Shown one piece after another: positions 1 through 49,158 of a DNA stretch of 64,000 nt. Each line of letters starts with the position of its first letter. Position 1 is the stretch's first letter. The notes beneath the pieces are model-generated. The model saw only the letters and a program-made list of their open reading frames with translations. It was not told the origin of the DNA and ran no database searches. The stretch lies in the NCBI GenBank assembly GCA_041752395.1, contig JBGSWN010000121.1:912-64911 (forward strand), in the 5' to 3' direction. The stretch comes from Saprospiraceae bacterium (GTDB lineage: Bacteria > Bacteroidota > Bacteroidia > Chitinophagales > Saprospiraceae). The translations under genes were made by a program, and so were the position numbers.

Positions 1-2553
1 CGTGATGCTCAGCGTGAATTTCTCCAGCAGCTCCTGCACCATCGCCCGGTCGTGCGGCTCAACGCCCAGCGGCTTTGTTTCGAGCAAAAGCGCCGCCTGT
101 GCCTCCAGCATGGCCGTTGGTGCAACATGGCCCAGTTCTTCCTGGACAAGGGGGCGAGCCCCCTTGGGATTCTCCCCGTCAGTTAAACCTTCCGCTCCAA
201 GGGGGTTTGCCCCCTTGCTTGCCCCCAAAATCTCATCCAAAAACGACGTCCGCAGCAGCGCCTTCCCATCGTCGCCCTGCGTCGCATAGCTGATGTGCAG
301 CCGCTCCTTCGCCCTCGTCATCGCCACGTAGAACAAGCGCCGCCTCGCCTCCATCGCATCCGCCTCCCCGCTCAGGTGCAGCGTATCCGGGAACGTAAAC
401 TGGAACTGCCCGCTGCGGGGCCTCGGCTCCCAGTTGTCCTTCACGCTATCCAGCAGGAAGACGTAGCGGAACTCTAGGCCCTTGGAGGAATGCGCCGTCA
501 ACAACTGGCTTGCCCCGACGTGGCGTCGGGGCGGATTGCGGATGACGGAACTTGTCCCGACACCTCGGGATTGGGGGGCTGCTTCTGGGACATTATTTGG
601 GTTTGGCGGGGGAAGTACGGACAAAGCACTGCCAGAGCTTAATCCCAAATCCGCAATCCGCAATCCGAGATTGTTAGCGTCCATGCTCGCAAAAATCTCC
701 CGCAGCCTCGTAAGGCCGAGGCGAGGGTTGCGCTGCGCTTCTTTTTCGATGAAACTGGTGAAGGAAAACAGCACTTGCAGCAATTCCGCCTTCCGCTCCG
801 AATCGAGTACATGGCGCAGCAGCCCACTGCGGTTTATCAGTCTTTCGATGAAATGCGGAATGCTCAGGTTGGCGTACTCACCCAGCATGAATTCGATGAA
901 TTCGGAAAGCGCCACGAATGCTTCCGGCTTCTCCAAACCCACTGATTCCAACAGGTTTTTATCAGAAATCAGGACCCGCCAAGGCCTTTCCGATTGCGGA
1001 TTGCGGATTGCGGATTGCGGATTTTCAACTGCCACCCACCGCCGATTGTCCACCGACAACCGTGCAACATCCGCCGGTTTTATCCCAAAAAACTCGAAAT
1101 GCAGCATACGGAACAATGCCTGCTCCCCACTGTATGGTCGGTGAAATTCATCCACGAAATAGCCGAGCATCAAGCGCAGGTTCTGTACTAGCGGCAGGTC
1201 GAGGGCATTGATGGACTGGCGGGTCTGGTATGGGATGCCCTTTTTCTCCAACAAAGCCATCAGGCGCTTCGCTTGGCGGTGCTTCGCAAAAATGACGGCC
1301 ACCTCGTCGAGCGGGAAGCCCTCGTTCATCAGGTTTTCGAGCTGCTCCGCAATGGCCACCTCCTCCTGCAATCGGTTCGGATAAGCCGTCACGATGGGGC
1401 GCAGGGGCAGTTCGGCGTAGTCGGGATGTCGTGCCGTCAGGATTTTCTCCAGCCCCAAATCCTTGAGGTTGTTGACGATGCGCAGCGTGTTACCAGCGAT
1501 GAGCGAACCTGCCGTGTCGAGGATATGCTGGGTGGAACGGTAGTTTTCCGTCAGCACCAACACCGTCAGGTCGTCGTGGTGGGTGTGGTAAAAATCGGTG
1601 ATGTTCTTCAGCCTCGCCCCCTGGAACTCGTAAATGCTCTGGTCGTCGTCCCCGACGATGAAGATGTTGGGGGCATCCCAGAACTCCGTCAGGCGGTGCA
1701 GGATTTCGTTCTGGGCGCCGTTGGTATCCTGGAATTCATCGAGCAGGAAGTAGAGGTACTGCTCCTGATATCGGGCCAGCAGGAAGGGGTTCTCTTTGAA
1801 GGCTTTCAGCACCCACAGAATCATGTCCTCGTAGTCGTAGCGGCGGCGCTCCCGCAATATTTCTTCGTAGCGGGGAAAGAGTTGCACCGCCGAGCGAAGC
1901 CGCTCCATTTTCACCTTTTCATCTTCAATGGCAGCGGTTTTCAGGTCGCCCTTTTTCCAAGTGCCCCGGTTTTGCTTGTAAATAAATTCCTCACGGGTCG
2001 GCAGTTCGGCGAGGTAAGCGTCTATTTTTTCTTCGACAAAACGGGGCGTCCAGTTCTCCGATTTCATGCGCCGGAACAGTTCCGTCAAATGCTTTTCATA
2101 CCGATAACCATCCGAGCGACCACGGCGCAACGGGTGCGTCCAAGGCAGTTCGTCCATCAATTGGCGGATGGTTTCCACCCGTTCGAGGTCGCTCAGCGGT
2201 TCTAGTTCCCGCCTCCCAAAGAGGTCAATATTGTCCTGGATAATGGTGTTGCAGAACGAGTGGAAGGTGAAGATGTGCACCTTGTGGGCATCCGGCCCGA
2301 TGAGCGAGAGCAGCCGCTGCCGCATGGCCTGCACCCCAGCGTCGGTGAAGGTGAGGCAGAGGATATTGTAGGGTTGGGCGTCGGTTTTCAGCAGGATATT
2401 GCCGATGCGGGCGGCGAGGATGTGCGTCTTGCCCGTGCCCGGCCCAGCGATGACCAGCACGGGGCCTTCGATGGTTTCCACGGCTTCCCGTTGCGCCGGG
2501 TTGAGGCGCTCCAGTTCCCGAAGGAATTTCTCATTGTTGTGCTGGATGGTCAT
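1..2553 (-). CDS. UvrD/Rep/PcrA-family ATP-dependent DNA helicase, partial (C-terminus lies beyond the window start)
   Basis: Absent from the ORF track because no stop lies in the window. Reverse translation from ATG 2553-2551 gives MTIQHNNEKFLRELERLNPAQREAVETIEGPVLVIAGPGTGKTHILAARIG (Walker A). Further down it reads LLTAHSSKGLEFRYVFLLD and RRRLFYVAMTRAKERLHISY (helicase motifs V/VI). I checked by hand that the frame is open across 480-1080. Confidence 0.9.
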   Translation of the reverse strand, partial: MTIQHNNEKFLRELERLNPAQREAVETIEGPVLVIAGPGTGKTHILAARIGNILLKTDAQPYNILCLTFTDAGVQAMRQRLLSLIGPDAHKVHIFTFHSFCNTIIQDNIDLFGRRELEPLSDLERVETIRQLMDELPWTHPLRRGRSDGYRYEKHLTELFRRMKSENWTPRFVEEKIDAYLAELPTREEFIYKQNRGTWKKGDLKTAAIEDEKVKMERLRSAVQLFPRYEEILRERRRYDYEDMILWVLKAFKENPFLLARYQEQYLYFLLDEFQDTNGAQNEILHRLTEFWDAPNIFIVGDDDQSIYEFQGARLKNITDFYHTHHDDLTVLVLTENYRSTQHILDTAGSLIAGNTLRIVNNLKDLGLEKILTARHPDYAELPLRPIVTAYPNRLQEEVAIAEQLENLMNEGFPLDEVAVIFAKHRQAKRLMALLEKKGIPYQTRQSINALDLPLVQNLRLMLGYFVDEFHRPYSGEQALFRMLHFEFFGIKPADVARLSVDNRRWVAVENPQSAIRNPQSERPWRVLISDKNLLESVGLEKPEAFVALSEFIEFMLGEYANLSIPHFIERLINRSGLLRHVLDSERKAELLQVLFSFTSFIEKEAQRNPRLGLTRLREIFASMDANNLGLRIADLGLSSGSALSVLPPPNPNNVPEAAPQSRGVGTSSVIRNPPRRHVGASQLLTAHSSKGLEFRYVFLLDSVKDNWEPRPRSGQFQFTFPDTLHLSGEADAMEARRRLFYVAMTRAKERLHISYATQGDDGKALLRTSFLDEILGASKGANPLGAEGLTDGENPKGARPLVQEELGHVAPTAMLEAQAALLLETKPLGVEPHDRAMVQELLEKFTLSIT
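532..1026. repeat. Heptanucleotide (GATTGCG-type) tandem arrays inside the helicase CDS, in three patches with mixed orientation
   Basis: 992-1019 is GATTGCG x4, followed by GATTTTC. 641-668 is AATCCCA AATCCGC AATCCGC AATCCGA, the inverse sense. 532-552 is CGGATTG CGGATGA CGGAACT. CGGATTGCGGAT (532-543) is the exact reverse complement of ATCCGCAATCCG (649-660). Confidence 0.9.
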
Positions 2554-2687
2554 TGCGGAGCAAATGTAACAAAAGGAAAATTGAGCTTGTGAAATCCCGC
2601 ACCGGAGGAGTCGTGGTCGCCCAATTTATTGGGCGACCACAAATTGGCAGTATTTTCGCTCAAAATTTTTCAACCAACTTCCAATTC

Positions 2688-2978
2688 ATGAAAATACTTG
2701 CCTTATTGCTTTGCATCGCCGGCGCCGGCATGATCGTCGTTTCTGGTTTCATGGCCATGATGTCGCCGATGGCGATGGATGCGCCGGGGAGCGAGAAGTC
2801 CACGGCCTTGTGGGCTTTTGTTTACCTAATGTTGGCTTCACCCGTAGCGTTCCTTGTGACGGATATTCTTGCTTGGATTCAGTTTGGGAAAGGAAATTAT
2901 GGCGGCGCTATCAAGTGGGCGTTGCTGGGTTTTGTTCCGTTGGTTTGTGCCTTTCTCTCCTTATTTCTAAAAAGATAA
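2688..2978 (+). CDS. Small integral membrane protein (hypothetical)
   Basis: The ATG at 2688 within ORF 2553..2978 gives MKILALLLCIAGAGMIVVSGF..., with three hydrophobic helices. No recognisable family. Confidence 0.6.
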   Translation: MKILALLLCIAGAGMIVVSGFMAMMSPMAMDAPGSEKSTALWAFVYLMLASPVAFLVTDILAWIQFGKGNYGGAIKWALLGFVPLVCAFLSLFLKR

Positions 2979-2980
2979 AA

Positions 2981-3150
2981 CTAAGAAACTGTTTTAAAAC
3001 CTCTGACGAGACAGAAAATGTCAGATTTTGAGTGACAGACGAAGAGAATTTTTGCTGGGATAGCAGCGCTATCGCTGCAAAAATTGTCGAAGTATGTCGC
3101 CAAAAGATGGCGTTTTATGGCCGTTGAGGGGTTTTAAAACAGTTTCTAAG
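2981..3150. mobile_element. MITE-like 160-bp element with perfect 16-bp terminal inverted repeats and flanking CTAAG direct repeat
   Basis: AAACTGTTTTAAAACC (2986-3001) is the exact reverse complement of GGTTTTAAAACAGTTT (3130-3145). CTAAG occurs at both 2981-2985 and 3146-3150. The interior holds several sub-hairpins (CTGAC..GTCAG, GATAGCAGCGCTATC, AATTTTT..AAAAATT). It has no ORF and sits between convergent genes. Confidence 0.6.
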
Positions 3151-14012: not shown

Positions 14013-14017
14013 TTGAA

Positions 14018-14095
14018 GAATTGAGAATTGAGAATTGAAAATGGAGAATTGGCATCACGAGCATTTTCCATTTTCCATTTTCAACTCTCCATTAT
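14018..14095. repeat. Inverted pair of five-unit heptad arrays filling the purS-rsmI spacer
   Basis: GAATTGA x3 AAATGGA GAATTGG (14018-14052), then the spacer CATCACGA, then GCATTTT CCATTTT CCATTTT CAACTCT CCATTAT (14061-14095). The second arm overlaps the purS stop. Confidence 0.85.
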
Positions 14096-14332: not shown

Positions 14333-14368
14333 TGGATGGTGATTGGTGACTGGTGATTAGGGATTGGG
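14331..14368. repeat. Heptad array (GGTGATT type) abutting the purS start codon
   Basis: ATTGGAT GGTGATT GGTGACT GGTGATT AGGGATT GGG. The first unit includes the complement of the purS ATG. Confidence 0.85.
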
Positions 14369-15378: not shown

Positions 15379-18126
15379 ATGAAACAACGCTTCACAATTT
15401 TGCTCTGTTCGGCTTTCCTTTGCTGCGCAAACAGCCTGTTCGCACAACCCTCCAACAACGAATGTGCCAACGCACAGCCACTAAGCAACCTCAACAACTG
15501 GTGCTCTGCCGCCGCTGGCTTCACCAACGTGGGCGCCACATTGAGCAACGTCACAAACCCTGGTTGTTTTCCTTCGGGAAATGCGGACGTTTGGTTCTCC
15601 TTTGTTGCGCAAGCCAACACCGTCAACATTCGGGTCGTCGGCGCTACGGGCGGAAATACCCCCCCGGGCGGCTCCCTCATGGAACCACAGTTTGCACTTT
15701 ACAGCGGCACTTGCAACGCCCTGACCCTTGTGCAGTGCGCCTCCGATGCCTTCGGCCTCAACATCGCCGAGACCTTTGCCGGGCCGCTCACCGTCGGCCA
15801 AACCTACTATATTCGGGTGGATGCACGAAACAACAACACGGGCACTTTCAAGCTCTGTATCAACAACTACAATGCCGTGCCAGAACTCAGCGGCGACTGC
15901 CCCACTGGCGTGATTCTTTGCGACAAATCACCCTTCAGTGTGGAGCTGGCAGTGGGCGCTGGCAGTGACCCGAACGAGGTGGACCCCAGCACTTGCATTA
16001 ACGCCGAAATCGCTTGCTCTTGGTACCGTTGGACCTGCAAAGATGCCGGAACCCTCACATTTACCATCACGCCAAATAATTCCACAGACGATATTGACTT
16101 TGCCGTTTACGAACTGCCGGGTGGCCTCGGCGATTGTGCAAACAAGGAAGTCGTGCGTTGCGAAGCAGCCGGAGAGAATGTTGGGTCACCTTTTCCTGAT
16201 TGGCAAAATTGCTCTGGTCCTACAGGCTTGGCACTTTCTGAAAATGATGTCACTGAAGTCCCGGGCTGTCCAGTTGGGCAGAACAATTTCGTGGCGGCAC
16301 TCGATATGGTCGTGGGCAAAAGCTACGCCCTCGTCATCAATAATTTTAGCGAATCCGGCAATGGCTTTTCCATTGAGTTTGGTGGCACAGGCACTTTCCT
16401 CGGCCCTACTGCCGATTTTACCGTTGCTCCGCAAACGATTTGCCAGAACTCCACCATCACTTTCACCGATAATTCCAACTCTCTTGACGCCATCACTTTC
16501 TGGCAATGGAACTTCGGCATTGGCGCCAGCCCCGCCACCGCTACTGGCAAAGGCCCGCACACCGTGACCTACAACACACCCGGCACAAAGTCCGTCGCAC
16601 TGACCATCACCAATGAGGAAGGCTGCCAAGTGACGGACATCGAAACCATCAACGTGCTGCCGCTGCCGGAGGTTGACCCGACCCTGCTCGACGACTATTG
16701 CGGACCCGACGACAACACGGGCGCCGTGATTTTGTCGCCTTCCGGCGATGGACAACCGTACACCTACGACTGGACTGGAACCGGCGTTTTTACCAATGAC
16801 AGCTCGCTGGTTGACTTGGCTTCGGGCGATTATACCGTCGTCGTGCAGACCGCCAACGGCTGCACCCAGAGCTTTGATTTCACGGTGGAAGAAGGCTTGA
16901 GCCTCGCTGCTGGCGTTGACCCAGTGTCGCCGCCCACCTGCAACGGCGACTCGGATGGCAGCATTTCCATCACCATCCAAATCGCAAACCCGCCAGTTAC
17001 TTTCGACTTCGGCAACGGCCCACAATCGAGCAATACCTTTAGCGGAATCCCCGCTGGAACTTACAACGTTCAGGTCGTGGATGGCCAAGGCTGCGCTGGT
17101 AATTTCACCATCGAAGTAGTGGATTTTCCACCGTTGGACTTAGGCATTGCCCCAATTGACATCAGTTGTTTTGGGGCAAATGACGGCACCATTTCCATCC
17201 TGCCCACGGGTGGGGCAGGTGGCTATTCCTATCTTTGGAGCAATGGTGCCACCACTTCCAGCATCTCAGACCTTGCCGCAGGCAACTACTCCGTCACCGT
17301 CACGGATGAGAATGGTTGCTCCGCAACCGCCGAGGCCGACATTATTGAACCGGAGCCCTTAACGGCTACCCTAGAAACCGTGGACGTGATTTGTTTTGGG
17401 GATGAAACGGGCGTGATCACCGTCACTGCCACAGGTGGCACACCGCCATTCGAGTACAGTTCCAACGGCACTGATTTTCAAACTGACCCTGCCCTCATCA
17501 ACCTCGGCGGCGGCACCTACGACGTGGTGGTGCAGGACAGTAGGGGCTGCACGTTCACCATCCCCGGCACCATCAACCAGCCGCCGCCCATCATCGTGGA
17601 GGCTGGTAACGACCAGACGATTGACCTTGGCTACTCCGCCAATTTGGTTGCCACTGTTTTACCTCCAACGCTTCCTGTGACGCTGAGTTGGGTGCCCTCG
17701 GAGTCGCTGAGCTGCGCCGACTGCCTGCGCCCGGAAGCTACCCCGTACCTCACCACGACTTACACCCTCACCGCCACCGACGAGAATGGCTGCACAGGCA
17801 GCGACTCGGTGACGGTCTTCGTAATTTTGGTGCGCCCGGTGTACATCCCGAACGTCTTTTCGCCGAACGGCGACGGCCTCAACGATTTCTTCACCGTCTT
17901 CGGGGGCAAAGCCGCCAAAACCATCAGAACGCTCAAGGTCTTCGACCGCTGGGGCGACAATGTCTTTGTGGGAACCGACCTCCCGCTGAACGACGAGCCG
18001 CTCGGCTGGGATGGTGTTTTTCGGGGAAAGCTGATGGACACGGGCGTGTTCGCCTACCTTGCCCAAGTGGAGTTTGTGGATGGCGTGGTGGTGCTCTTCA
18101 AAGGTGACGTGATGATTATTAGGTGA
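15379..18126 (+). CDS. Large surface protein with PKD domain, SprB repeats and T9SS type B (gliding-motility) C-terminal domain
   Basis: Signal peptide MKQRFTILLCSAFLCCANSLFAQ. SprB-type repeats include CFGANDGTISILPTGGAGGYSYLWSNGATTSSISDLAAGNYSVTVTDENGC. The C-terminus reads VYIPNVFSPNGDGLNDFFTVFGG...KVFDRWGDNVF...GVFAYLAQVEF...KGDVMIIR. Confidence 0.88.
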   Translation: MKQRFTILLCSAFLCCANSLFAQPSNNECANAQPLSNLNNWCSAAAGFTNVGATLSNVTNPGCFPSGNADVWFSFVAQANTVNIRVVGATGGNTPPGGSLMEPQFALYSGTCNALTLVQCASDAFGLNIAETFAGPLTVGQTYYIRVDARNNNTGTFKLCINNYNAVPELSGDCPTGVILCDKSPFSVELAVGAGSDPNEVDPSTCINAEIACSWYRWTCKDAGTLTFTITPNNSTDDIDFAVYELPGGLGDCANKEVVRCEAAGENVGSPFPDWQNCSGPTGLALSENDVTEVPGCPVGQNNFVAALDMVVGKSYALVINNFSESGNGFSIEFGGTGTFLGPTADFTVAPQTICQNSTITFTDNSNSLDAITFWQWNFGIGASPATATGKGPHTVTYNTPGTKSVALTITNEEGCQVTDIETINVLPLPEVDPTLLDDYCGPDDNTGAVILSPSGDGQPYTYDWTGTGVFTNDSSLVDLASGDYTVVVQTANGCTQSFDFTVEEGLSLAAGVDPVSPPTCNGDSDGSISITIQIANPPVTFDFGNGPQSSNTFSGIPAGTYNVQVVDGQGCAGNFTIEVVDFPPLDLGIAPIDISCFGANDGTISILPTGGAGGYSYLWSNGATTSSISDLAAGNYSVTVTDENGCSATAEADIIEPEPLTATLETVDVICFGDETGVITVTATGGTPPFEYSSNGTDFQTDPALINLGGGTYDVVVQDSRGCTFTIPGTINQPPPIIVEAGNDQTIDLGYSANLVATVLPPTLPVTLSWVPSESLSCADCLRPEATPYLTTTYTLTATDENGCTGSDSVTVFVILVRPVYIPNVFSPNGDGLNDFFTVFGGKAAKTIRTLKVFDRWGDNVFVGTDLPLNDEPLGWDGVFRGKLMDTGVFAYLAQVEFVDGVVVLFKGDVMIIR

Positions 18127-18129
18127 GGG

Positions 18130-18265
18130 GATTTACGATTTTACGACTGACGATTTACGACTGGGCACACAGCTCAAATGGAAAAGGGTAGGAAGCGCTT
18201 TGCTTCGTACCCTTTTTCGTTATTGGTTGCGGACTCAATCGTAAATCCAAAATCGTAAATCGTCA
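18130..18265. repeat. Inverted GATTTAC-type repeat arms bracketing a bidirectional terminator
   Basis: The left arm is GATTTACGATTTTACGACTGACGATTTACGAC (18130-18161). The right arm is CAATCGTAAATCCAAAATCGTAAATCGTCA (18236-18265). Both share TGACGATTTACGA or its complement. Confidence 0.8.
18182..18217. terminator. Bidirectional rho-independent terminator between convergent genes
   Basis: AAAAGGGTAGGAAGC-gcttt-GCTTCGTACCCTTTTT, with A and T runs on either side. Confidence 0.8.
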
Positions 18266-18266
18266 T

Positions 18267-18896
18267 TCATTTCACTTCACAAGCAAGCAACTGCTCCTCC
18301 TTCCCGTCCACTGTTTTCACAAAGCCCTCCAGTTGGTCGCCAATTTTCACAGGCCCAACCCCGGCAGGCGTGCCTGTGAAGATGAGGTCGCCTTGCAGCA
18401 GCTTGAAATATTGGGAAACATAGGTGATGATGTTTCCGAAGGAAAAAAGCACATCACGGGTGTTGCCGTGCTGCACGGTTTCGCCATTTTTTTTCAAAAA
18501 AAACTCAATGTTTCCGCCACTGTTGACCCGGTGCAGGGGAACAAACTTGCCCAGCACCGCCGAATTGTCGAAGCCCTTGGCAATCTCCCATGGGTGGCCT
18601 TTTTTCTTGAGTTCCTCCTGCACGTCACGAGCGGTGAAGTCAATGCCTAGCGCCACTTCCTCGTAGTAGCTGTCGGCAAATTCCGGCTGGACGGCCTTTC
18701 CGTTTTTGCAGATTTTCAGCACCACCTCGCATTCGTAGTGGAGGTCTTTCGTGAAATCTGGGTAGTAAAACGGCTTCTCGTTCACCAGCAGCGCCGATGG
18801 TGGCTTCATGAACACGACGGGTTTGCCGACTGGCACGGGGTTATTGAGTTCTTTGGCGTGGTCGGCGTAATTTCTACCAATGCAGATTATTTTCAT
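18267..18896 (-). CDS. Fumarylacetoacetate hydrolase (FAH) family protein
   Basis: Start at MKIICIGRNYADHAKELNNPVPVGKPVVFMKPPSALL. GHPWEIAKGFDNSAVLG and LQGDLIFTGTPAGVGPV are typical of the FAH family. Confidence 0.88.
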   Translation of the reverse strand: MKIICIGRNYADHAKELNNPVPVGKPVVFMKPPSALLVNEKPFYYPDFTKDLHYECEVVLKICKNGKAVQPEFADSYYEEVALGIDFTARDVQEELKKKGHPWEIAKGFDNSAVLGKFVPLHRVNSGGNIEFFLKKNGETVQHGNTRDVLFSFGNIITYVSQYFKLLQGDLIFTGTPAGVGPVKIGDQLEGFVKTVDGKEEQLLACEVK

Positions 18897-19070
18897 ATTG
18901 CGGTGATTGGTGATTGGTGATATTAAGAAAAACTTTTTCGACGCTGATTTTTTAAGATTTTTATGATGAATTATGTTGCTGGACGTACCGTCCAGCATAA
19001 AAAATCATAAAAATCAGCGTCTTTCAGCGTCAAAAAACATGCGTCAGATTTTTTCTTAACGCCACCAATT
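18895..19070. repeat. Nested palindromic intergenic element (heptads GGTGATT x3, an ~82-nt imperfect hairpin and an outer inverted repeat)
   Basis: GGTGATT GGTGATT GGTGATA lies at 18902-18922. The hairpin spans 18940-19021 (GACGCTGATTTTT...TGCTGGACG-tac-CGTCCAGCA...AAAAATCAGCGTC). The outer arms are GATTGGTGATATTAAGAAAAA and TTTTTCTTAACGCCACCAATT. Confidence 0.8.
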
Positions 19071-20079
19071 ACATTTTGACATTCATAAGCCCAGAAAGCT
19101 CCTTGACTTCTCTTATTGTCTCTTGCGCCCGTTTGCGGATAATAGCAGAGGATTCCCGGATTTGCTCTTTCATGGCTTTTTTATCAGCGTTCAACTCAGC
19201 CCGTTTTTCACGGAAGCTGGCACTCAATTGGGCCAATGATTCGGCGACGACCTCCTTGAGTGGGGCGTATTTCAAGGCACCAGCGTTGTAGTCGTCCATC
19301 AGGGAAGCGTGGGCCTCCATATTGCCAGCAGCTTTAAGCAGCCTGAAGAGGTTGGCGACGCCAGCGCTCATTTCCCCGGCTGGGGTATCACCTGTGTCGG
19401 TTACAGCACTTTTGATTTGCTTGCGCAAAACGGCATCTTCGGCGAAGACGTTGATGTAATGCTTATCTCCGGCGCTTTTGCTCATTTTCTTCGAGGGGTC
19501 GGCGGTGGATTTAACGCTCGGCGTCTCAGTGTTCAGCGAAGCTGGCAGCACGAAATATTCCTTTCCCACTTGGTTGTTGAAGCGCTGCGCAATATTGCGA
19601 CTGAGTTCCAGGTGCTGCTCCTGGTCTTTGCCGACCGGCACATAGTCCGCCCGATAAATCAGGATGTCGGCGGCCTGCAAAACGGGGTAATCGAACAGGC
19701 CGACAGAGATGAAGCCCTCGGCCTTCTCCTCGCTCTGGGCGCTTTTGTCCTTGAACTGCGTCATGCGGCTCACGTTGCCGAAGGAGGCGAAGCAGTTGAA
19801 AATCCAGCCGAGTTCCACATGTTCTGGTATCAGCGACTGGATGAAAAGGTTCTCTGCTTTGACACCCACGGCCATCAGGTTGAGGATGAGGTCCCAGACG
19901 TTTTCCCGCAGCTTGGCGGGCACGTAGGGCATGCTCATGGCATGGTAGTCGGCAATGCCGTAGTAGCAGGTGTATTTCTCTTGGAGGTCCACCCAGTTCT
20001 TCACGGCACCGAAATAGTTGCCGTAGTGCATGTGGCCCGTGGGCTGGATGAGGGAAAGGACTGTTTTTTTCATTGTCAT
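19069..20079 (-). CDS. trpS: Tryptophan--tRNA ligase
   Basis: SLIQPTGHMHYGNYFGAVKNW is the HIGH-type motif, and KMSKS is present (DPSKKMSKSAGD). 336 aa. Confidence 0.93.
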   Translation of the reverse strand: MTMKKTVLSLIQPTGHMHYGNYFGAVKNWVDLQEKYTCYYGIADYHAMSMPYVPAKLRENVWDLILNLMAVGVKAENLFIQSLIPEHVELGWIFNCFASFGNVSRMTQFKDKSAQSEEKAEGFISVGLFDYPVLQAADILIYRADYVPVGKDQEQHLELSRNIAQRFNNQVGKEYFVLPASLNTETPSVKSTADPSKKMSKSAGDKHYINVFAEDAVLRKQIKSAVTDTGDTPAGEMSAGVANLFRLLKAAGNMEAHASLMDDYNAGALKYAPLKEVVAESLAQLSASFREKRAELNADKKAMKEQIRESSAIIRKRAQETIREVKELSGLMNVKM

Positions 20080-20095
20080 TTTTTTCTTAGGAACG

Positions 20096-20353
20096 TCAAT
20101 CGTTTTTTAATGGTTTCATGTTTCTTTTCCATTTCACCAAACCCACCACACTCGCCCCCACCCAAACCGCCTCCAGCACGACAAACGGCACCGACCCCAT
20201 CATCGCCGCCCCGACGGTAGCGAGTATGCCGCCAAACAGGTTCAGCAGCCAATAAGCAAGGCTCGCTTGGCTGATTTTATTGAAAGAAGAACCGAGGAAC
20301 GCCAGCAAAATCAAGCTGACGCCGAGGGCACTGAACAGGGTGGACTGGCTCAT
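20096..20353 (-). CDS. Small membrane protein (hypothetical)
   Basis: MSQSTLFSALGVSLILLAFLG... has 2-3 transmembrane helices. Its ATG overlaps the ridA stop in an ATGA arrangement (20350-20353), which suggests translational coupling. Confidence 0.6.
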   Translation of the reverse strand: MSQSTLFSALGVSLILLAFLGSSFNKISQASLAYWLLNLFGGILATVGAAMMGSVPFVVLEAVWVGASVVGLVKWKRNMKPLKND

Positions 20354-20733
20354 TTCACCGCAGCAATAACGGAGATTTCGATGTTGACGAATTTGGGCAG
20401 GTTGGCCACTTCCACGGTCTCCCGTGCGGGCGCCCAAGTTGGGTCGAAGTACTCGGCGTACACGGCATTGATGCGGGCAAAGTCGTGCATGTTTTTGATG
20501 AAAACACTAGCTTTCAGCACATCCTGGTAGGTGCAGCCTGCCGCTTCTAGGATGGCACCGACGTTTTTCAGCACTTGGTGGGCTTCATCTTCCAAACTGC
20601 CCTGAAGCAGCTCGCCAGTGGCGGGCACGATGGCAATTTGGCCAGAGGCATAGAGGATTCCGTTGTGGATGACGGCTTGGTTATAGGGGCCAATGGCGCC
20701 GGGAGCATTGGGGGTGGAAATGATTTTTTTCAT
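20350..20733 (-). CDS. ridA: RidA family reactive-intermediate deaminase
   Basis: MKKIISTPNAPGAIGPYNQAVIHNGILYASGQIAIVPATGEL...PARETVEVANLPKFVNIEISVIA is a canonical YjgF/RidA sequence. Confidence 0.92.
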   Translation of the reverse strand: MKKIISTPNAPGAIGPYNQAVIHNGILYASGQIAIVPATGELLQGSLEDEAHQVLKNVGAILEAAGCTYQDVLKASVFIKNMHDFARINAVYAEYFDPTWAPARETVEVANLPKFVNIEISVIAAVK

Positions 20734-20851
20734 AAAAATGAGTGGATGACAGGTTGAGTGAATGGGCGAAGGTATTAAAAACAGAGAAAGCCCCTTATCC
20801 AACTTTCGTTGGACAGGAGCTTTTAGATTTTAGATGCTGCTTGGCCGGGGC

Positions 20852-21049
20852 TTATTCCTGGTCTTCCTTGGATTTTACCAGAATCTTGCCTTTGTAGCGC
20901 ATGTTTCCCTCACTATCCGTGTAGGCATGGTGGAAAATATGCGTTTCGCCAGTGGCTTGACACTTGGCAATTGTTGGCATTGCGGCACGGTCGTGAGCCC
21001 GGCGGGTGCGGGTACGCTGCTTCGAATGTTTATTTCTAGGATTTGGCAT
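20852..21049 (-). CDS. rpmF: 50S ribosomal protein L32
   Basis: MPNPRNKHSKQRTRTRRAHDRAAMPTIAKCQATGETHIFHHA, 65 aa, downstream of yceD as in most bacteria. Confidence 0.93.
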   Translation of the reverse strand: MPNPRNKHSKQRTRTRRAHDRAAMPTIAKCQATGETHIFHHAYTDSEGNMRYKGKILVKSKEDQE

Positions 21050-21061
21050 CGCTATTTGTAT

Positions 21062-21148
21062 TTAAGACTTTAGAAATTAGACGTTAGATTATAGACGGAA
21101 TCGGTGGAACATCATCTAATGTCTTTTGTCTAATATCTACGGTCTGTT
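21062..21148. repeat. Inverted pair of five-unit heptad arrays (TTAGAC type) filling the yceD-rpmF spacer
   Basis: TTAAGAC TTTAGAA ATTAGAC GTTAGAT TATAGAC, then a 17-nt spacer, then ATCTAAT GTCTTTT GTCTAAT ATCTACG GTCTGTT. Confidence 0.85.
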
Positions 21149-21152
21149 TATG

Positions 21153-21671
21153 TCAATTATCATTTTGAAGGCCCTTCAATGCGTCCCAAATGGAGGTGGA
21201 AGAACTTGGTTCGTCCTCGCTCTCCTCTTGTTTCAGGAATTTCAACATTTCCGGGTCACATTCCTCGTCGGCGTCGTCGTGGGTTTTTGCAATCGGTACA
21301 GCAAGGTTGATGAACTCGTAAATGTACGAAGCCACGTTCAGCCTTGGTGTCTCCCTTAGGATGTAGATGATGTCTGCATCCTCCCACTCCTTCTCATCGA
21401 ATTTCACCAACAACATTTCGTCGGCTTCGATGGGCAGGTCGAACTCCTCCAAGCAGCGGTCACAGGCGGTTTTCACCGTGCCGTCTAGTTCAAAGGTCAT
21501 GGTGTACATGTCGGATTGCTTGTCGAAAACGAAATGTACCGCCACGTCTCCATCCTTAATTGGTGACTCTGGAAAGCACTGGAAAAACGACGAATCTATA
21601 ATGAAATCGTACTCGTGGATACCGTTGTGCAACCCTGAAACCGGGATGGTGAAGTGCTCTAAAATGTCCAT
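21153..21671 (-). CDS. yceD: YceD/DUF177 family protein (large-subunit rRNA accumulation protein)
   Basis: 172 aa with an acidic C-terminus and the CDRCLEEFDLPI motif. It sits directly upstream of rpmF. Confidence 0.85.
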   Translation of the reverse strand: MDILEHFTIPVSGLHNGIHEYDFIIDSSFFQCFPESPIKDGDVAVHFVFDKQSDMYTMTFELDGTVKTACDRCLEEFDLPIEADEMLLVKFDEKEWEDADIIYILRETPRLNVASYIYEFINLAVPIAKTHDDADEECDPEMLKFLKQEESEDEPSSSTSIWDALKGLQNDN

Positions 21672-21955
21672 TTTTAAAGAACTTTTTTAAAAGGAGCGCA
21701 AAGATAGGCTGTTTTTTCAGATTTTGGGTTTGCGCATTCAGTTTTTTTTATTGGTAAATTAGCTGGCCGTAATTGCCGCTTAAAATTCAAGCCATTTTTC
21801 CACAGCCAAAAAGTCACTGACCGCCTATTTTTTCGCAAAAAACAATACAATTTTGCATAATCAATTGAATATCATACATTTGGCGGACTACTTTGAAGGG
21901 ACTTGGCTGCGGATTTGGCAGCTCAACATACTAACATCATAAGAGAAAAACGACT

Positions 21956-22843
21956 ATGAGGGGTTTAATCATTGGCTTCCTGTTTTTACTTGCCTACGCC
22001 ATTCCGGCACGTTGGTACTTCGTTTGCCAGCTTCGGCACCACTGCGGCGACGAGCCTGCGGTCGTTGCGCCCACACGCCCGATGACACTTTCCTTGCACG
22101 ACGGCGACAAGACCATATTACAAGGTTACGAGCAGTTTGGCTTTGCCCCTAACTCATTTCAACCTGACCTCTCTGCCAACAACCAAGCGTTTTTGGCGAA
22201 AGTGGCGGAATACCTGAAAGCAAATCCTGACAAAAAAATCACCCTCACGGGGCGCTTCCTGCCTTCAGAAAGCATTGCGAAAAGTGGCATCTTCGAAAAT
22301 ATCGGTATCGCCCGAGCCGCTGCCGTAGAGCAGCTTTTGGTAAAATTGGGCGTTTCGGAAAAACGCTTTTCCATTGATTATCAAAAGGTTATAGGTACAA
22401 CTTTGGAAGAGCCAATCTCCTTCAACCTTTTCAGCCCGAAGCCTGACGACTACGACCGTCCGGTTTACAGCTTCAAGGACAATACCTTTTCCGACGCCAA
22501 TTTCGCCTTCGGCTCCGACGAGTTCAAGCCCGGCGAGCAGTGCATACTCTATGCAGATTCGGTAAAAACCTTTTTGGGTACCAATCCGACCATGATGCTG
22601 ACTATCACGGGACATACAGACAGCATTGGCACCGAAACCAATAACCTCAACCTTGGCCTGCGGAGGGCAAAAAATGCCGCTGCCTATTTCCGGGAATTGG
22701 GCGTGAAATCCGAAATCATTTCCACCACAAAGGGAGAAGAACTGCCCGTAGCGCCTAACACGGTTGACGGCAAGGACAACCCCGAAGGCCGCCAAAAAAA
22801 CCGACGGGTGAATTTTAAAATTGAAGAAAAAACTGCTCAATAA
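21956..22843 (+). CDS. OmpA-family peptidoglycan-associated protein
   Basis: N-terminal transmembrane segment or signal anchor. The C-terminal OmpA-like domain reads ITGHTDSIGTETNNLNLGLRRAKNAAAYFRELGV...GRQKNRRVNFKIE. Confidence 0.88.
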   Translation: MRGLIIGFLFLLAYAIPARWYFVCQLRHHCGDEPAVVAPTRPMTLSLHDGDKTILQGYEQFGFAPNSFQPDLSANNQAFLAKVAEYLKANPDKKITLTGRFLPSESIAKSGIFENIGIARAAAVEQLLVKLGVSEKRFSIDYQKVIGTTLEEPISFNLFSPKPDDYDRPVYSFKDNTFSDANFAFGSDEFKPGEQCILYADSVKTFLGTNPTMMLTITGHTDSIGTETNNLNLGLRRAKNAAAYFRELGVKSEIISTTKGEELPVAPNTVDGKDNPEGRQKNRRVNFKIEEKTAQ

Positions 22844-22929
22844 TCTAATTGATAAAGGCCAGAAAAACTTTTAAAGAGTTGATAATCAACTAATTGAAAT
22901 CCATTTTGACCAATTTCTAAAACAACAAC

Positions 22930-24303
22930 ATGGAAAACTTATTCGAATCTTTAAACCACCAAGACAGTGTTTTTTTCCTCCTATCCATGCTCGTCAGCTT
23001 CCTGATTGGCTTCATTGCTGCTTGGCTCATGTGGCGGGGAGCGGCCAAGCGCTACCAACGGGAAGCCGCCGATTGGAAGAAAAAATACGACGACCAAACC
23101 TTGGAATTGGCTTCCCTTCGGGAAAAACTGGACCTCAGCACCGCCGACCTTGCCAAGGCAAAACGAGAGGCCGAAACAGCTTTGGCCCAAGCCGTTGCCA
23201 CGCAAAATGAAAAAATAAAATGGCAGAAAGACCTCGACCAGTCTTTGGAAGAAACCGTGCGTTTGCATGCCTCCAGCCATGCCTACCAAGCCACCATCGA
23301 AGACCTCAACAACCAAATCATCGGCCTCAAAACCCGCAACGAACAAACAGCATTTGCTGCTTCGGATGGAAGTAGCTCAAATGAGCAATTGATTGCACTG
23401 CAAACTTCCTACGAGGCTTCGCAACAGCGCCTCGGCTCGCTCGAAGCCAAAGCCGCAGTGCTAGCAGCGGAGAACGAAGCGCTAAAAACAGGCATCAAAA
23501 AAGAAGACGAGAACCTGTTAGACCTTCTGAAATCATACAATGATTCAACTAACCGCCTAGGTAGTTTGGAGGAAAAACTGGGCATTCTCATGGTTGAAAA
23601 CGAACGGTTGCGGGCCAAATTGGAAGGCCAAGGCGAAACTCCTTCCGAAGAGAATTCCACCCGCCTTGCAGAACCCATCGTGGCTTCCATCAATCCCGCC
23701 GACAAGGAAGCCATCACAGGAGGGGCCATTACGCCTTCCGACGCCAAGAATGAAGTGTTGGCAGCCATCGGCAGCACTATCCCTTCTGCAACCGCCGATC
23801 AAAAAGACAACCTGACAGAAATAAAAGGCATCGGTTCTTTTTTGGAGAAAAAGCTGAACAGCCTCGGCATTTACAAATTTGAGCAAATCAGCAAATTGAC
23901 GCCAAATCTGATTGAAAAACTGACCACGGCCATCGAGTTCTTCCCCGGTCGCATTGAACAGGATGATTGGGTGGGGCAGGCAGCCCTTTTGGCGAAGTCG
24001 ACAAAAACAAAGGCAGCTCCAAAAAGCAAGGCAGCCAAGGCCGAAGACCTGAAAATCGTAGAGGGTATCGGGCCGAAAATTGAACTGCTGCTGCACAATG
24101 CTGGCATCCAAAACCTAAACGACCTCGCCAAAACCACCGTTGAGCAACTGAAAAAAGTATTGGTGGATGCCGGCGAGCGCTACCGCATTCATGACCCAAG
24201 CACTTGGCCCGAGCAGGCCCGACTTGCTGCCAGTGGCGAGTTAGACAGTTTAAAGGAATACCAAGATTTTCTTGCGGGAGGTAAAGAACCTGGGAAAGCG
24301 TAG
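22930..24303 (+). CDS. Membrane-anchored coiled-coil protein with two C-terminal helix-hairpin-helix-like motifs (hypothetical)
   Basis: N-terminal transmembrane segment VFFLLSMLVSFLIGFIAAWLMW, followed by long heptad-rich Q/E/L/K segments. The two motifs are LTEIKGIGSFLEKKLNSLGI and LKIVEGIGPKIELLLHNAGI. Confidence 0.65.
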   Translation: MENLFESLNHQDSVFFLLSMLVSFLIGFIAAWLMWRGAAKRYQREAADWKKKYDDQTLELASLREKLDLSTADLAKAKREAETALAQAVATQNEKIKWQKDLDQSLEETVRLHASSHAYQATIEDLNNQIIGLKTRNEQTAFAASDGSSSNEQLIALQTSYEASQQRLGSLEAKAAVLAAENEALKTGIKKEDENLLDLLKSYNDSTNRLGSLEEKLGILMVENERLRAKLEGQGETPSEENSTRLAEPIVASINPADKEAITGGAITPSDAKNEVLAAIGSTIPSATADQKDNLTEIKGIGSFLEKKLNSLGIYKFEQISKLTPNLIEKLTTAIEFFPGRIEQDDWVGQAALLAKSTKTKAAPKSKAAKAEDLKIVEGIGPKIELLLHNAGIQNLNDLAKTTVEQLKKVLVDAGERYRIHDPSTWPEQARLAASGELDSLKEYQDFLAGGKEPGKA

Positions 24304-34391: not shown

Positions 34392-37300
34392 ATGATTCGG
34401 TTTCTTACATCACTAATAGTGCTGCTTTCTGTTACGGCTGTTTTTGCGCAAAAGCCAGTGTTCCAAGGGGTTCCAATTCAAAATGAGACGCTGACTGAAG
34501 TCTCCGAACAGCTTTACCATTGGGAAATTTTTCAAATCAACGCCCAGGAATTGAGCCAATTCACCTCGAAAGCTGGCGACGAGTCTTCCTTTCGCCTTGC
34601 ACTCGGCACCCACGACTGGGACATTGTGCTACAAAAGCGGGACTTGCGAAGCGCCAAATACATCAGCAGTGTTTTGACGGACGAAGGCGTGAAATCAACC
34701 CCTGCCAATGACGGCCTAATGACCTACCGGGGCCAGCTGCCCGGCCAGCAGGGTTGGTCGGTCGCACTTACCCTGGGTTCGGAGTTCATTTATGGCTATC
34801 TCGAAGAAGGTGGTGAAACCTATTATATCGAGCCACTTTCCTATTTTATACCTGGCAGCCCAAGTGACCAGTTCGTTGTTTACCCAAATTCTGCGGTAAA
34901 ACCAGACAACAGCGAGCATAAATGCGGTGCTTTGGAAATGAAGGACAAAATGGAAGAGCTCCACCCGGAAGAGCTGATGAAAGAGCACGGAGAAAACGCT
35001 GAAAAAATGATGGCTTGCGTGGAAATAGAGCTTGCCATTGCATCCGACCTTTCCATGTTCAATTTTCATGGTTCAGCGCCTGGGGTTAATGCCTTCACAC
35101 TGGGTGTTATGAATGGTGTGCAAACCAACTACGACAACGAGTTCAATGACGAACTTCATTTTGAAATCGTGGAGCAGTTCGTGGTAGCCCCACCAGCCAC
35201 TGACCCGTGGACAAACTCCACGAATGCCGTGACTTTGCTCAACAGCTTTACTTCATGGGGCCCAAGCGGCTTTTCCGCCACCCACGATTTAGGACAACTT
35301 TGGACCAAGCGCAACTTGGATGGAGGAACAGTGGGCATCGCCTGGGTCAGCGCAGTCTGTACCAATAGTCGCTACCATGTTGTTTCGGAGTTTACAACAT
35401 CACAATGCGCACTTAGGGTGATGACGGCCCATGAAATAGGTCACAATTTCAGTGCGCAGCATGATGCCCCAAATTCCGGTTTCATCATGGCGCCCTCTGT
35501 TAATTGTACCAATAATTGGTCTACTGCATCTCAGAATTCTATCAACGGCTACTACCCGACCCGTGGATGTTTGGGCACTTGCTCCAGTTCGCAGCCCCCT
35601 ATCGCTAATTTCTCTGCAACTCCTACAATTGGGTGCAACCCGTTGACAGTAGCGTTTACAGACCTCTCCACCAATGCTCCTTTTATTTGGAGCTGGTCAT
35701 TCCCAGGTGGATCACCTAGTACCTCCAGCCAACAGAACCCAGTTGTTGTTTATGCCACCCCCGGCACGTATAATGTCACGTTGGTTGCCACCAATGCTGC
35801 AGGAACAAATAGTGTTACTAAAACAGGGTTTATCACCGTGCTTGCAACTCCGGTTGCAAATTTTACTTGGACACAGGTAGGGCTTACCCTGATATTCACC
35901 AACACCTCTACTAACGGCACCAGTTACTCTTGGAATTTTGGCGATGGTGGCACCAGCACGCAAACGAATCCAACCCACACCTATTCAGTGGATGGTTTTT
36001 ACGATGTAACCTTGAATGTTACCAATGCTTGTGGCACAGTATCTACTTTGACTACGATCCCAGTTTTCGTAGTGCCAACTGCAAATTTCATAGGCATCCC
36101 GACCTCAGGTTGCGCTCCCTTGAGCGTGAGCTTTGTAGATCAAAGCTCATCCAACTCCCAGACTTGGTCTTGGAATTTCCCCGGTGGAAACCCTAGCACT
36201 TCCTCGCTTCAGTTCCCATCGGTTTCCTACAACACACCCGGCTCTTACACAGTCGCCTTGACAGTGACCAACCCAGCGGGTGGAGACAATGAGACCAAAA
36301 CGAACTATATCGTGGTAGGCAGCACGCCAACCGTTGATTTTACGTCAGTCGTGAACGGGAATACGGCCAACTTCACTAGCAACGTTACCAATCCGGCTGG
36401 AAGCGGCACTATTAGTTACAGCTGGGATTTTGGCGACGGCAATACCAGTACACTAGCCAACCCAAGCCATACTTATTCAGCAGGTGGCTCTTATAGTGTG
36501 AAACTAACCGTCACTAATACTTGCGGCAACGCTTTCAAAGTACATCCAGTAACCATCCTAGTGCCACCGGTAGCTGGGTTCACCGCCACCAATACTTCTG
36601 GCTGCTCTCCACTTACTGTCAACTTTACGAGCACATCAACGGGAGCTAACAGCTACGCTTGGACATTCCCCGGCGGAACACCAAGTTCTTCCACTGCGCA
36701 AAACCCAACGGTTGTTTACACGACTGCTGGCATTTATGACGTAACGCTTGTCGTAACCAATCCAGCAGGTTCGAATACGCTGACGCAGCCAGGCTACGTC
36801 ACCGTCAACACCACCCCGGTAGCTGGCTACACCAGCAGTGTGAGCGGCACAACGGCCACATTTACAAACACCAGCACCAACGCCACAAGCTATTCTTGGG
36901 CCTTTGGAGATGGCGGCACTAGCACCAGCGCCAACCCAACGCACACCTACGCTACGGATGGCACGTACACCGTGGTTTTGAGTGCAACAAACGCTTGCGG
37001 CACGGTGACTTCTTCGCAAACAGTTGTTATCCAAACACCGCCCACGGCAGGTTTTACCGCCAATAACACGAACGGTTGTGCGCCGTTCACGGTACAGTTC
37101 ACTAGCCAGTCTTCTGCCAATGCCACCACTTTTGCATGGCAGTTTCCGGGTGGCTCACCGAGCACATCCACGGCACAAAACCCTAGCGTGACCTACTCGG
37201 CAGTAGGCACTTACACCGTTACACTGACGGTATCCAATACGGCGGGAAGCAACACCGCCACGCAAACCAACTATATCACCGTCAACACCACACCAGTAGC

Positions 37301-47674: not shown

Positions 47675-47847
47675 GGAAATGGAATTGAAAATTGAGAATT
47701 GAAAATTGAGAATGACCGTTGCGAAGGCAAATCTAAAAAGTTAGGGTGGCGAAAAAGGTAATTTTTGGATTTCAGACTTTACCTCTTCTATCTTCGCCCC
47801 CAAACTCGCTGGCATTCTCAATTTTCAATTTTCAATTTTCAATTATC
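47675..47847. repeat. Divergent intergenic region bounded by mirrored ~35-nt heptad arrays abutting both start codons
   Basis: The left arm is GAATTGA AAATTGA GAATTGA AAATTGA GAATGAC (47682-47716). The right arm is CATTCTC AATTTTC AATTTTC AATTTTC AATTATC (47813-47847), followed directly by the murA ATG. Confidence 0.88.
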
Positions 47848-49158
47848 ATGAATTCCTCCTCCTTTGAAGTAACCGGAGGCCGCCAGTTGAGCGGCAGCAT
47901 CGTGCCGAAAGGCGCAAAGAACGAAGCCCTCCAAGTCATCTGCGCCCCGCTTTTGACCGCAGAAAAAGTCACGATTTCCAACATCCCCGACATCGCCGAC
48001 GTGCGCAGCCAGATAGAGCTGATGCGGGGCCTGGGGGTCAAAGTGGAGCGCCTCGCCACCGATACCTACAGCTTTCAGGCCGATGAGGTGGACAGCAACC
48101 TGTTCGACAACAAAAATTTCCTCGGCAATGCCCGCCGCATCCGTGGCTCGGTGATGCTGATGGGGGCGCTGTTGGGGCGCTTCCGCAAAGCGCTTTTGCC
48201 GCAGCCCGGCGGCGACAAAATCGGGCGGCGCAGGCTCGATACCCACTTCCTCGGCCTGCAAAAACTCGGTGCCGACTTCCGCTACGATGCCGAGGAGCGC
48301 ATGTATTTCATCGAAGCGCCCAAGCTCCAGGGCACGTATTTGCTCATGGATGAAATCAGTGTGACGGGCACGGCCAACGTGCTTTTCGCCGCCGTGATGG
48401 CCGAAGGCACGACCACGATTTACAATGCTGCCTGCGAACCTTATGTGCAGCAGCTCTGCAAATTGCTGAATAAAATGGGCGCTAAAATCAGCGGCATTGG
48501 CTCGAATCTGCTCATCATCGAGGGCGTCTCCAAACTCGGCGGCGCAGCGCACCGCTGCCTGCCGGACATGATTGAAATCGGCAGTTTCATCGGCCTAGCG
48601 GCAATGACGCAATCCGACCTGACCATCAAGGACTGTGCGGTAAACGAGCTGGGGAACATCCTCCCCGTCTTCGAGCGGATGGGCGTGAAAATGAACATCC
48701 TCGGCGACGACATCCACGTGCCAGCGCAGGAGGAAATCGAAATCCAGTCCTTCATTGACGGCTCCATCATGACCGTGTACGACTCGCCGTGGCCAGGCTT
48801 CACCCCCGACCTGATGAGCATCATCCTCGTGATGGCCACGCAGGCGAAGGGCAGCGTTTTGATTCACCAAAAAATGTTTGAAAGCCGCCTCTTCTTCGTG
48901 GATAAGCTAATAGACATGGGCGCTCAAATCATCCTCTGCGACCCGCACCGAGCCACGGTCATCGGCCTGAACCGCCGCTTCCAACTCCGGGGCATCGAAA
49001 TGACCTCGCCGGACATTCGGGCAGGGGTAGCGCTGCTTATCGCTGCGCTGTCGGCACGGGGGAAGAGCACGATTCACAATATCCACCAGATTGATCGGGG
49101 GTATGAACGGATAGATGAACGGCTGAATGCGCTGGGGGCGGAGATAAGGCGGGTGTGA
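47848..49158 (+). CDS. murA: UDP-N-acetylglucosamine 1-carboxyvinyltransferase
   Basis: MNSSSFEVTGGRQLSGSIVPKGAKNEALQVICAPLLTAEKVTISNIPDIADV...; 436 aa. Confidence 0.93.
   Translation: MNSSSFEVTGGRQLSGSIVPKGAKNEALQVICAPLLTAEKVTISNIPDIADVRSQIELMRGLGVKVERLATDTYSFQADEVDSNLFDNKNFLGNARRIRGSVMLMGALLGRFRKALLPQPGGDKIGRRRLDTHFLGLQKLGADFRYDAEERMYFIEAPKLQGTYLLMDEISVTGTANVLFAAVMAEGTTTIYNAACEPYVQQLCKLLNKMGAKISGIGSNLLIIEGVSKLGGAAHRCLPDMIEIGSFIGLAAMTQSDLTIKDCAVNELGNILPVFERMGVKMNILGDDIHVPAQEEIEIQSFIDGSIMTVYDSPWPGFTPDLMSIILVMATQAKGSVLIHQKMFESRLFFVDKLIDMGAQIILCDPHRATVIGLNRRFQLRGIEMTSPDIRAGVALLIAALSARGKSTIHNIHQIDRGYERIDERLNALGAEIRRV

Follow-up and report, generated by a model that had tools for sequence, protein, structure and literature searches.

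How does a conserved DNA-repair helicase come to carry tandem heptanucleotide repeats inside its reading frame? The question is raised by a 64,000-nt stretch of genomic DNA from a Saprospiraceae bacterium (GCA_041752395.1, contig JBGSWN010000121.1, positions 912 to 64,911; "the window" hereafter means this whole stretch), which opens with a UvrD-like helicase gene whose coding strand runs through patches of the 7-mer GATTGCG/CGCAATC, or AATCCGC in the phase used here. Our analysis indicates that these patches are probably tolerated, translated members of the known heptanucleotide class of long simple sequence repeats (LSSRs), which would sit in permissive loops of the protein and be turned over by slippage or template switching.

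Judged from its predicted domains and motifs, the host gene is a UvrD/PcrA-family superfamily 1 (SF1) DNA-repair helicase fused to a C-terminal PD-(D/E)XK nuclease. The 851-codon translation obtained from the window is 100% identical to a full-length protein of 1152 aa (P0001), the only member of its protein cluster, whose near relatives are named Saprospiraceae. Pfam assigns to it UvrD-helicase (PF00580, 4e-62), UvrD_C (PF13361) and, at the C-terminus, the PD-(D/E)XK nuclease domain PDDEXK_1, and the motifs GPGTGKT, DEFQD, LLTAHSSKGLEF and YVAMTRA are all found in the translation, which therefore has the UvrD N- and C-terminal domains and motifs I-VI of the SF1A class. The best solved structural relatives are PcrA and UvrD; residues 558-572 of PcrA (AVMLMTLHAAKGLEF) pair in the alignment with helicase residues 681-695, which would place the repeat site called b below in the linker leading from domain 2B to motif V, and site a within domain 2B. 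About 60 nt upstream of the helicase start, before the next gene, the window also holds a 13-nt perfect palindrome with a 2-nt loop (2613-2640, GTGGTCGCCCAAT / ATTGGGCGACCAC).

A first-pass annotation made from the sequence alone had described three heptamer patches in this gene, and they lie where it placed them. Its near-perfect array at 992-1026 is reported by Tandem Repeats Finder as GATTGCG x4.6 at 992-1023 with 100% matches, and the inverted match of a 12-mer at 532-543 with 649-660 extends to 13 exact nucleotides (531-543 and 649-661). Two of its figures need correction: the four copies counted at 641-668 come down to 2.9 perfect units plus degenerate sequence (AATCCGC x2.9, 648-667, 100% matches), and the exact arms, said to enclose a piece of about 136 nt, are 105 nt apart, 137 nt being the length of the whole module at 532-668. 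The translations it quoted are correct, the minus strand from the ATG at 2553 reading AVENPQSAIRNPQSERPWR and then NNLGLRIADLGLSSGSALSVLPPPNPNNVPEAAPQSRGVGTSSVIRNPPRRHVGASQLLTAHSSKGLEF. All four occurrences of the 14-mer GATTGCGGATTGCG in the window fall in the helicase gene, against 0.03 expected from shuffles, none of the 100 shuffles reaching four. The helicase arrays consist of 7-nt units repeated head to tail (4.6 and 2.9 copies) and, being internal to the open reading frame (ORF), they are not of the leader type, in which an array sits a few nucleotides upstream of a start codon.

Four sites of the gene, a to d, are involved (Table 1). Site a is a solo array, and site b is a module of two inverted arms around a spacer, with a small hairpin (TCCCGACACCTCGGGA) nested in the spacer at 555-570 and the C-rich arm standing 9 codons ahead of the QLLTAHSSKGLEF of motif V. 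Site c is made of a different small palindrome, with two matches against 0.01 expected; one copy recurs at the same site in the orthologue L004, and most orthologues lack it. We rejected this palindrome as a dispersed element, as no copy was present in the 355 other loci examined. Site d of the window's own gene would be of the GAAACCA type, judging by its peptide ETKNQKPET only.

The comparison with orthologues, in alignments of 26 and then 116 sequences, with the DNA of the sites read for selected orthologues (L001, L002, L004-L007, L354-L356; two others, P0050 and P0029, are partial), carries most of the argument. Typical members of the family are 1046-1050 aa long, against 1101-1175 aa in the close clade (at least 70% identity), and the extra length falls at the four hypervariable sites a, b, c and d. 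Relatives at 63-82% identity have heptamer arrays at the same sites, with unit, copy number and spacer varying; sites a, b and d change in unit and in length among orthologues at 70-82% identity. Site b can be followed from nearly nothing to a full module: between MDxN and GLEF, the window protein has 72 aa and the Lewinellaceae orthologue L356/P0048, without any repeat, 33 aa, L355 has 35 aa with a CAGTTGG doublet encoding QLAV, and the 41 aa of L354 are made of several heptamer arrays. The window and L001, L002, L005, L006 and L007 have 47-80 aa here, in the order (GGATTGC)n arm, spacer, (CAATCCG)n arm. The G-rich arm of these five orthologues is homologous (GGATTGCGGATTGCGGATT(A/C)CGGATTGCGGA), the orthologue C-rich arm is (CAATCCG)x3-6 and directly adjoins CAGTTGCTG (QLL), and the spacers, from about 20 to about 110 nt, show no sequence relationship to one another, the window and L001 excepted. 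L004, the closest relative, has (CAGTTGG/CAGTTCG)n and a 9-nt repeat at this site instead.

The other sites behave alike. At site a, the AATCCGC array of the window is matched by (GGACGGT)n in L004 and by a 14-mer x2.5 in L002; L001, L005 and L006 have an unrelated segment without repeat, and L007, L354, L355 and L356 are 9-12 aa shorter and have no array. At site d a (CAGTTGG)n array is common to six of the seven orthologues (L005 only partly), followed in variety by a second array of AATCCGC, AATCCGA, GAAACTC or GAAACCA units, in place of which L005 has the 8-nt unit CAAATCCT. Some spacers contain a small nested hairpin (CCCGAGGTGTCGGG in both the window and L001, TCCCGACTACTCGGGA in L005, GGCCCCAAAGGGGC in L006), and AATCCCC units occur inside the L001 array. 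The first-pass annotation had proposed that the segments are in-frame insertions, and had named orthologue alignment as the check. Distant orthologues lack these peptides, and the orthologues that have the segments all encode them by heptamer arrays, so the insertion reading survives the refutation set for it, namely the same peptides in distant orthologues with no nucleotide repeats. Since short orthologues without repeat stand beside repeat-encoded segments in the rest, the helicase segments are, by these alignments, lineage-specific additions to an ancestral gene that are quickly remodelled at fixed positions. The likeness then drawn to the palindromic elements of Rickettsia holds in part: the additions are lineage-specific and in frame, but they have no conserved body, their spacers are unrelated and the unit type varies. 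Downstream of its helicase orthologue, at a distance of 3.5 kb, L006 has a type III CRISPR-Cas locus (16829-23315) that includes a reverse-transcriptase-Cas1 gene.

In each of the seven full-length orthologues with DNA read at the array sites, the frame is kept at every one of these sites despite the differences in length, which implies, at the level of sequence, that the segments are translated and that selection acts on the frame; a frame kept in this way would be surprising in segments removed before translation. As 7 and 3 have no common factor, each array is read as a peptide repeat of seven residues (NPQSAIR or ADCGLRI). Within the G-rich arm, the would-be TGC (Cys) codon, one per 21 nt, is replaced by TAC, TCC or TTG in six of the six species with this arm, a pattern that hints at selection on the protein. 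In an AlphaFold2 model built on the 116-sequence alignment, with a mean predicted local distance difference test (pLDDT) of 84.6 and a predicted template modelling score of 0.80, the pLDDT of aa 637-677 (site b) and of aa 779-792 (site c) is under 50, that of the block 511-520 (site a) is 67 and that of the block 1011-1040 (site d) is 58-70, so the additions are predicted to lie in flexible or disordered surface loops. The unit AATCCGC is stop-free in all six frames; a stop-free filter was rejected as the reason for the choice of unit: with 50% of heptamer classes free of stops on both strands, it is too weak.

The helicase is one of several places in the window where the period of seven stands out. 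Thirteen period-7 arrays were found in the window, against zero to two for each of the periods 4-6 and 8-12. Five of those outside the helicase (14017-14051, 14337-14367, 18902-18921, 47683-47713 and 47814-47848) end 3-8 nt upstream of an ATG and have the G-poor orientation on the mRNA strand (TCAATTY, AATCACC, CAATTCT), as leader arrays in one orientation would. It had been suggested that the helicase patches are the same element as that of the intergenic spacers, but the intergenic arrays of the window use the units TCAATTY, AATCACC, AAATCGT and CAATTCT, so that only the class is shared. A repeat of another kind, a 477-nt tandem repeat of 1.8 copies at 79% identity, lies at 36799-37660, probably within the gene of a large repetitive protein.

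Table 1 Heptamer arrays and associated features of the helicase gene and of the rest of the window
Feature	Position	Strand	Description
Helicase-nuclease gene	1..2553	minus	ATG 2553-2551; 851 codons open up to the left window edge, gene continues beyond
Site a, solo C-rich array	990..1026	minus	Coding strand (AATCCGC)x4.6; peptide ENPQSAIRNPQSE, about aa 510-522, domain 2B loop
Site b, G-rich arm	641..668	minus	Coding strand (GGATTGC)n; peptide GLRIADLGL
Site b, spacer	553..640	minus	88 nt; peptide SSGSALSVLPPPNPNNVPEAAPQSRGVGTSS
Site b, C-rich arm, decayed	531..552	minus	Coding strand TCCGTCATCCGCAATCCGC, decayed (GCAATCC)n; peptide VIRNPP
Site c	147..217	minus	Two in-frame copies of the small palindrome AAGGGGG-N4-CCCCCTT; peptide GASKGANPLGAEGLTDGENPKGARPL; helicase C-terminal linker
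Site d	past left end of window	minus	Between DYKTG and YWRQL
Intergenic inverted pair	47683..47848		(GAAAATT/GAGAATT)n, 104 nt, (TCAATTT)n; flanking genes divergent, each with its ATG 3-8 nt after the G-poor array
Intergenic inverted pair	18135..18263		(ACGATTT)n, 73-nt spacer with terminator-like hairpin, (AAATCGT)n; between convergent genes by sequence reading
Imperfect inverted heptamer pair	14017..14093		Lies between two minus-strand genes, ending 4 nt ahead of ATG 14012
Solo leader array AATCACC/AGTCACC/AATCCCT	14337..14367	minus	4 nt upstream of ATG 14332
Solo leader array (AATCACC)x3	18902..18921	minus	5 nt upstream of ATG 18896

Beyond this lineage, an exact (GATTGCG)x3 scan of one genome per species gave at least 119 stretches, and the locus counts that follow are among the matches listed. 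These come from more than ten phyla, including Acidobacteriota, Planctomycetota, Verrucomicrobiota, Gemmatimonadota, Chloroflexota and Bacteroidota. In the 119 loci we counted 328 period-7 arrays, against 2-85 for each of the periods 5, 6, 8, 9 and 10 and none at 11, so that seven is over-represented here as it is in the window. Viral and proviral contigs contain (GATTGCG)x3 in 48 stretches, compared with 15, 16 and 0 for three permutations of the same base composition; (CAGTTGG)x3 was found in 39 and the published repeat (TAACTGA)x3 in 107. Orientation is far from even: 29 arrays lie in the AATCCGC sense within 60 nt upstream of a long ORF, against 6 antisense, and where an array has an inverted partner it is upstream in 33 cases and downstream in one. 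The spacers of these 33 paired modules (6-148 nt) are mutually unrelated, as are those of the helicase orthologues, and no consensus is shared over the whole element in the manner of Rickettsia palindromic elements. The order of the arms is nearly fixed. Over all loci examined, with spacers of 1-200 nt searched (upper gap limit 200), inverted heptamer pairs have the G-rich arm first in a ratio of 46:0 for AATCCGC-like units and 30:5 for other units, an arrangement of the kind seen in miniature inverted-repeat elements or repetitive extragenic palindromic (REP) doublets; examples are L034 (minus-strand offset 2836), L046 (minus-strand offset 3221) and the window pair at 47683-47848, and helicase site b also has its G-rich arm first on the coding strand.

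Moreover, the helicase is not the only conserved protein with such a segment. Among the matches listed, the peptide QSAIRNPQSAI occurs in frame across several phyla: in TruB and IleRS, in two cases of UvrA (one of them a full paired module), in PurL, in a Ser/Thr kinase activation loop and an FtsX-type permease, and in two Saprospiraceae proteins, one of them large and the other resembling a TonB-dependent receptor (loci L101, L113, L081, L046, L118, L042, L008, L074 and L063; the identities were read from conserved motifs, with no family search). Typical homologues of the array-bearing housekeeping proteins lack the insertion, and a PabB-like gene adjoining the L004 helicase has the same array in frame. 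A peptide search with (NPQSAIR)x6 returned mostly spurious ORFs of 31-74 aa over intergenic arrays rather than host proteins (P0121-P0240). Public databases call several of these array ORFs 'major type 1 subunit fimbrin (pilin)', apparently an annotation artefact. In the literature searched, neither the exact array DNA nor the peptide strings were matched.

In the explanation that we consider probable, the lineage would carry heptamer arrays throughout its genome, and those in the helicase would have lodged in its four permissive loops. Slippage of strands or switching of templates, with copying from one site of the gene to another among these events, would create arrays and remodel them, nested insertion of small hairpins would contribute as well, and purifying selection would retain only stop-free variants with a total length that is a multiple of 3. 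As for their effect, the arrays would be passengers, neutral or mildly deleterious, that serve neither regulation nor switching. Several points weigh against it: their neutrality is something that we infer, simple local slippage does not account for the recurrence of an identical AATCCGC in more than ten phyla and in unrelated genes, the near-invariant G-rich-first order is likewise unaccounted for by slippage, and four array sites in one 3.4-kb gene stand, in a post hoc comparison, against about two in ~155 kb of other coding DNA. An unrecognised DNA-level process at work in many phyla, either a mobile element with heptamer-array ends or an enzyme that adds heptamers to 3' ends at a fragment or break, is conceivable, if rather improbable; were it real, it would make polar modules (G-rich arm, arbitrary spacer, C-rich arm) near start codons and in frame in housekeeping genes. 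A mobile element in particular, non-autonomous and inserted by a dedicated enzyme both intergenically and in frame, would have left an insertion at site b and remnants in the solo arrays. The spread of the unit over phyla, its excess in viral and proviral contigs and the in-frame insertions in housekeeping proteins whose typical homologues do without them are all consistent with it, and the fixed arm order is what element ends would show. Against this, the spacers are unrelated, an alignment of the 33 modules by their outer ends gave no common spacer and no visible target-site duplication, with arrays stopping in partial units, and the type of unit switches at one site between close relatives. 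The QLAV-coding CAGTTGG doublet CAGTTGGCAGTT (L355, L354, L004) looks like a local seed that has grown in place, and no associated transposase was found, though none was searched for. We therefore regard insertion of such an element as unlikely.

Two functional readings were weighed on the same material. The first-pass annotation had seen in the arrays a slippage-prone tract, in which gain or loss of a 7-nt unit would frameshift the helicase and turn a repair function reversibly on and off, as at a phase-variation contingency locus. A unit length that is not a multiple of 3, the perfect 4.6-unit tract at 990-1023 and the heptanucleotide precedent of neuO (PMC13001214) would suit such a switch, but the tracts are short (at most 4.6 units) and mid-gene, the host is a conserved repair helicase and not a typical contingency gene, the arrays have decayed in some lineages (the C-rich arm of the window; L004) rather than being kept long and perfect, and among the seven full-length orthologues examined no off-phase allele was seen. 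Two contigs deserve mention here. That of L128 (Ga0209066_10031543, 90% identity), the only closer relative in the metagenome scan, ends at residue 496, just before site a, which might be counted in favour of switching and fits arrays breaking short-read assemblies. In L127 (P0042, 5001-8378), the helicase is split into three ORFs by three 1-nt deletions, two of them inside the site b spacer; this split was rejected as a case of switching because none of the breaks is a 7-nt unit step, and they look like sequencing errors. With short mid-gene tracts, orthologues in frame and breaks that are not unit steps, the proposed switching has no support, and we consider it very unlikely. The other functional reading is that the site b hairpin, or arrays bound by protein, would regulate the helicase mRNA by pausing, stability or translation attenuation, like leader arrays. 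Folded as RNA, the site b module gives a long predicted hairpin in five species (z = -4.4 for the window, and from -5.0 down to -7.7 for L001, L005, L006 and L007), both arms are kept between species that are only ~70% identical in protein, and the orientation bias of leader arrays agrees with a function of this kind. However, inverted arrays automatically give hairpin potential, the closest relative L004 forms no hairpin (z = +1.06), the window's own C-rich arm is decayed and the arm mismatches are uncompensated. An Rfam search of window positions 1-3000 returned no family match reaching even E = 0.3. Selection for the hairpin as the main explanation was rejected on the missing hairpin of L004 and the uncompensated mismatches, and a regulatory structure in general appears very unlikely.

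At its four fixed sites the helicase displays a natural range of array states, in which array birth, swapping and decay can be followed under selection on frame and protein. The mechanism of heptamer arrays has been an open question since 2007; the occurrence of one stop-free unit in more than ten phyla, in frame in essential genes, and the near-invariant polarity of paired arrays suggest that whatever makes or selects them is more specific than generic slippage of the polymerase. For genome annotation, the arrays matter in that they create lineage-specific low-complexity loops in conserved enzymes, break assemblies (one contig stops at site a) and spawn spurious small ORFs. Of interest here are the density of arrays in one repair helicase, the recurrence of the stop-free AATCCGC, in frame, among housekeeping genes of many phyla, and the G-rich-first polarity of paired arrays; the heptanucleotide repeat class itself was already known.

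Among known systems, neuO of E. coli K1 has a heptanucleotide phase-variable tract (PMC13001214). Both it and the helicase arrays have a 7-nt unit inside an ORF that is in frame only at unit-number steps of three; the neuO tract, however, is long, lies near the 5' end of a surface-modification gene and has off-phase strains, none of which is seen for the helicase. Small dispersed repeats of Nostoc were reportedly described by Elhai in 2008. REP doublets form hairpins (REPINs) with fixed spacing and a cognate transposase, RAYT (PMC3116915). The heptamer modules resemble both groups as short hairpin formers with one preferred inverted arrangement, with nesting and with occasional copies in genes; unlike REP doublets, they have no fixed spacing, and no cognate transposase was seen, none having been searched for. 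The palindromic elements of Rickettsia, from the work of Ogata et al. in 2000, are said to be 100-150 bp long, to have a full-length consensus, and to lie in frame in conserved ORFs as a tolerated surface segment. The helicase module is likewise palindromic, in frame in a conserved ORF and missing from orthologues, but only its heptamer arms recur and its spacers are arbitrary, so that the likeness is one of effect and not of family membership.

Closer parallels are found among heptamer arrays proper. In Beggiatoaceae, Cyanobacteria and five Bacteroidetes, TAACTGA arrays immediately precede start codons (MacGregor 2015, PMC4679880), with rare ORF-internal copies found only in the stop-free orientation and at protein peripheries (PMC4679880), and heptamer repeats near Nostoc start codons have been suggested to be regulatory (bioRxiv 10.1101/2022.06.06.494920). 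The intergenic arrays of the window share with the TAACTGA repeats the position a few nucleotides upstream of start codons and the single orientation, and AATCCGC shares their patchy distribution across phyla. TAACTGA, however, has a stop in each forward frame, while neither strand of AATCCGC contains one, and the helicase arrays lie inside the gene, beside catalytic motifs; hairpin modules paired with the G-rich arm first are not described for TAACTGA (PMC4679880). Arrays of GGGAATC in Xanthomonas and GGGGA(T/C)T in Nostoc, some of them in inverted pairs, have been reported (Rehm 2015, PMC4692102); that study dealt with them as G-quadruplex formers of non-coding DNA and did not report coding copies in frame. 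These units are related to AATCCGC by a GATT/AATC core, and both kinds of array are found between genes, occur partly in inverted pairs and vary in length among close species. Heptamer tandem arrays were also, reportedly, among the cyanobacterial short tandemly repeated repetitive (STRR) sequences of Mazel in 1990. Long simple sequence repeats of heptamers are over-represented in many bacteria, and slippage tied to the polymerase footprint has been proposed for them (Mrazek 2007, as summarised in PMC4692102 and PMC4679880). The helicase arrays are like this heptanucleotide LSSR/STRR class in their tandem 7-nt units, the over-representation of period 7, the mostly intergenic location of such arrays and their fast turnover; they differ from it in being in frame at four sites of a conserved housekeeping gene, in a Saprospiraceae host and with AATCCGC as their unit.

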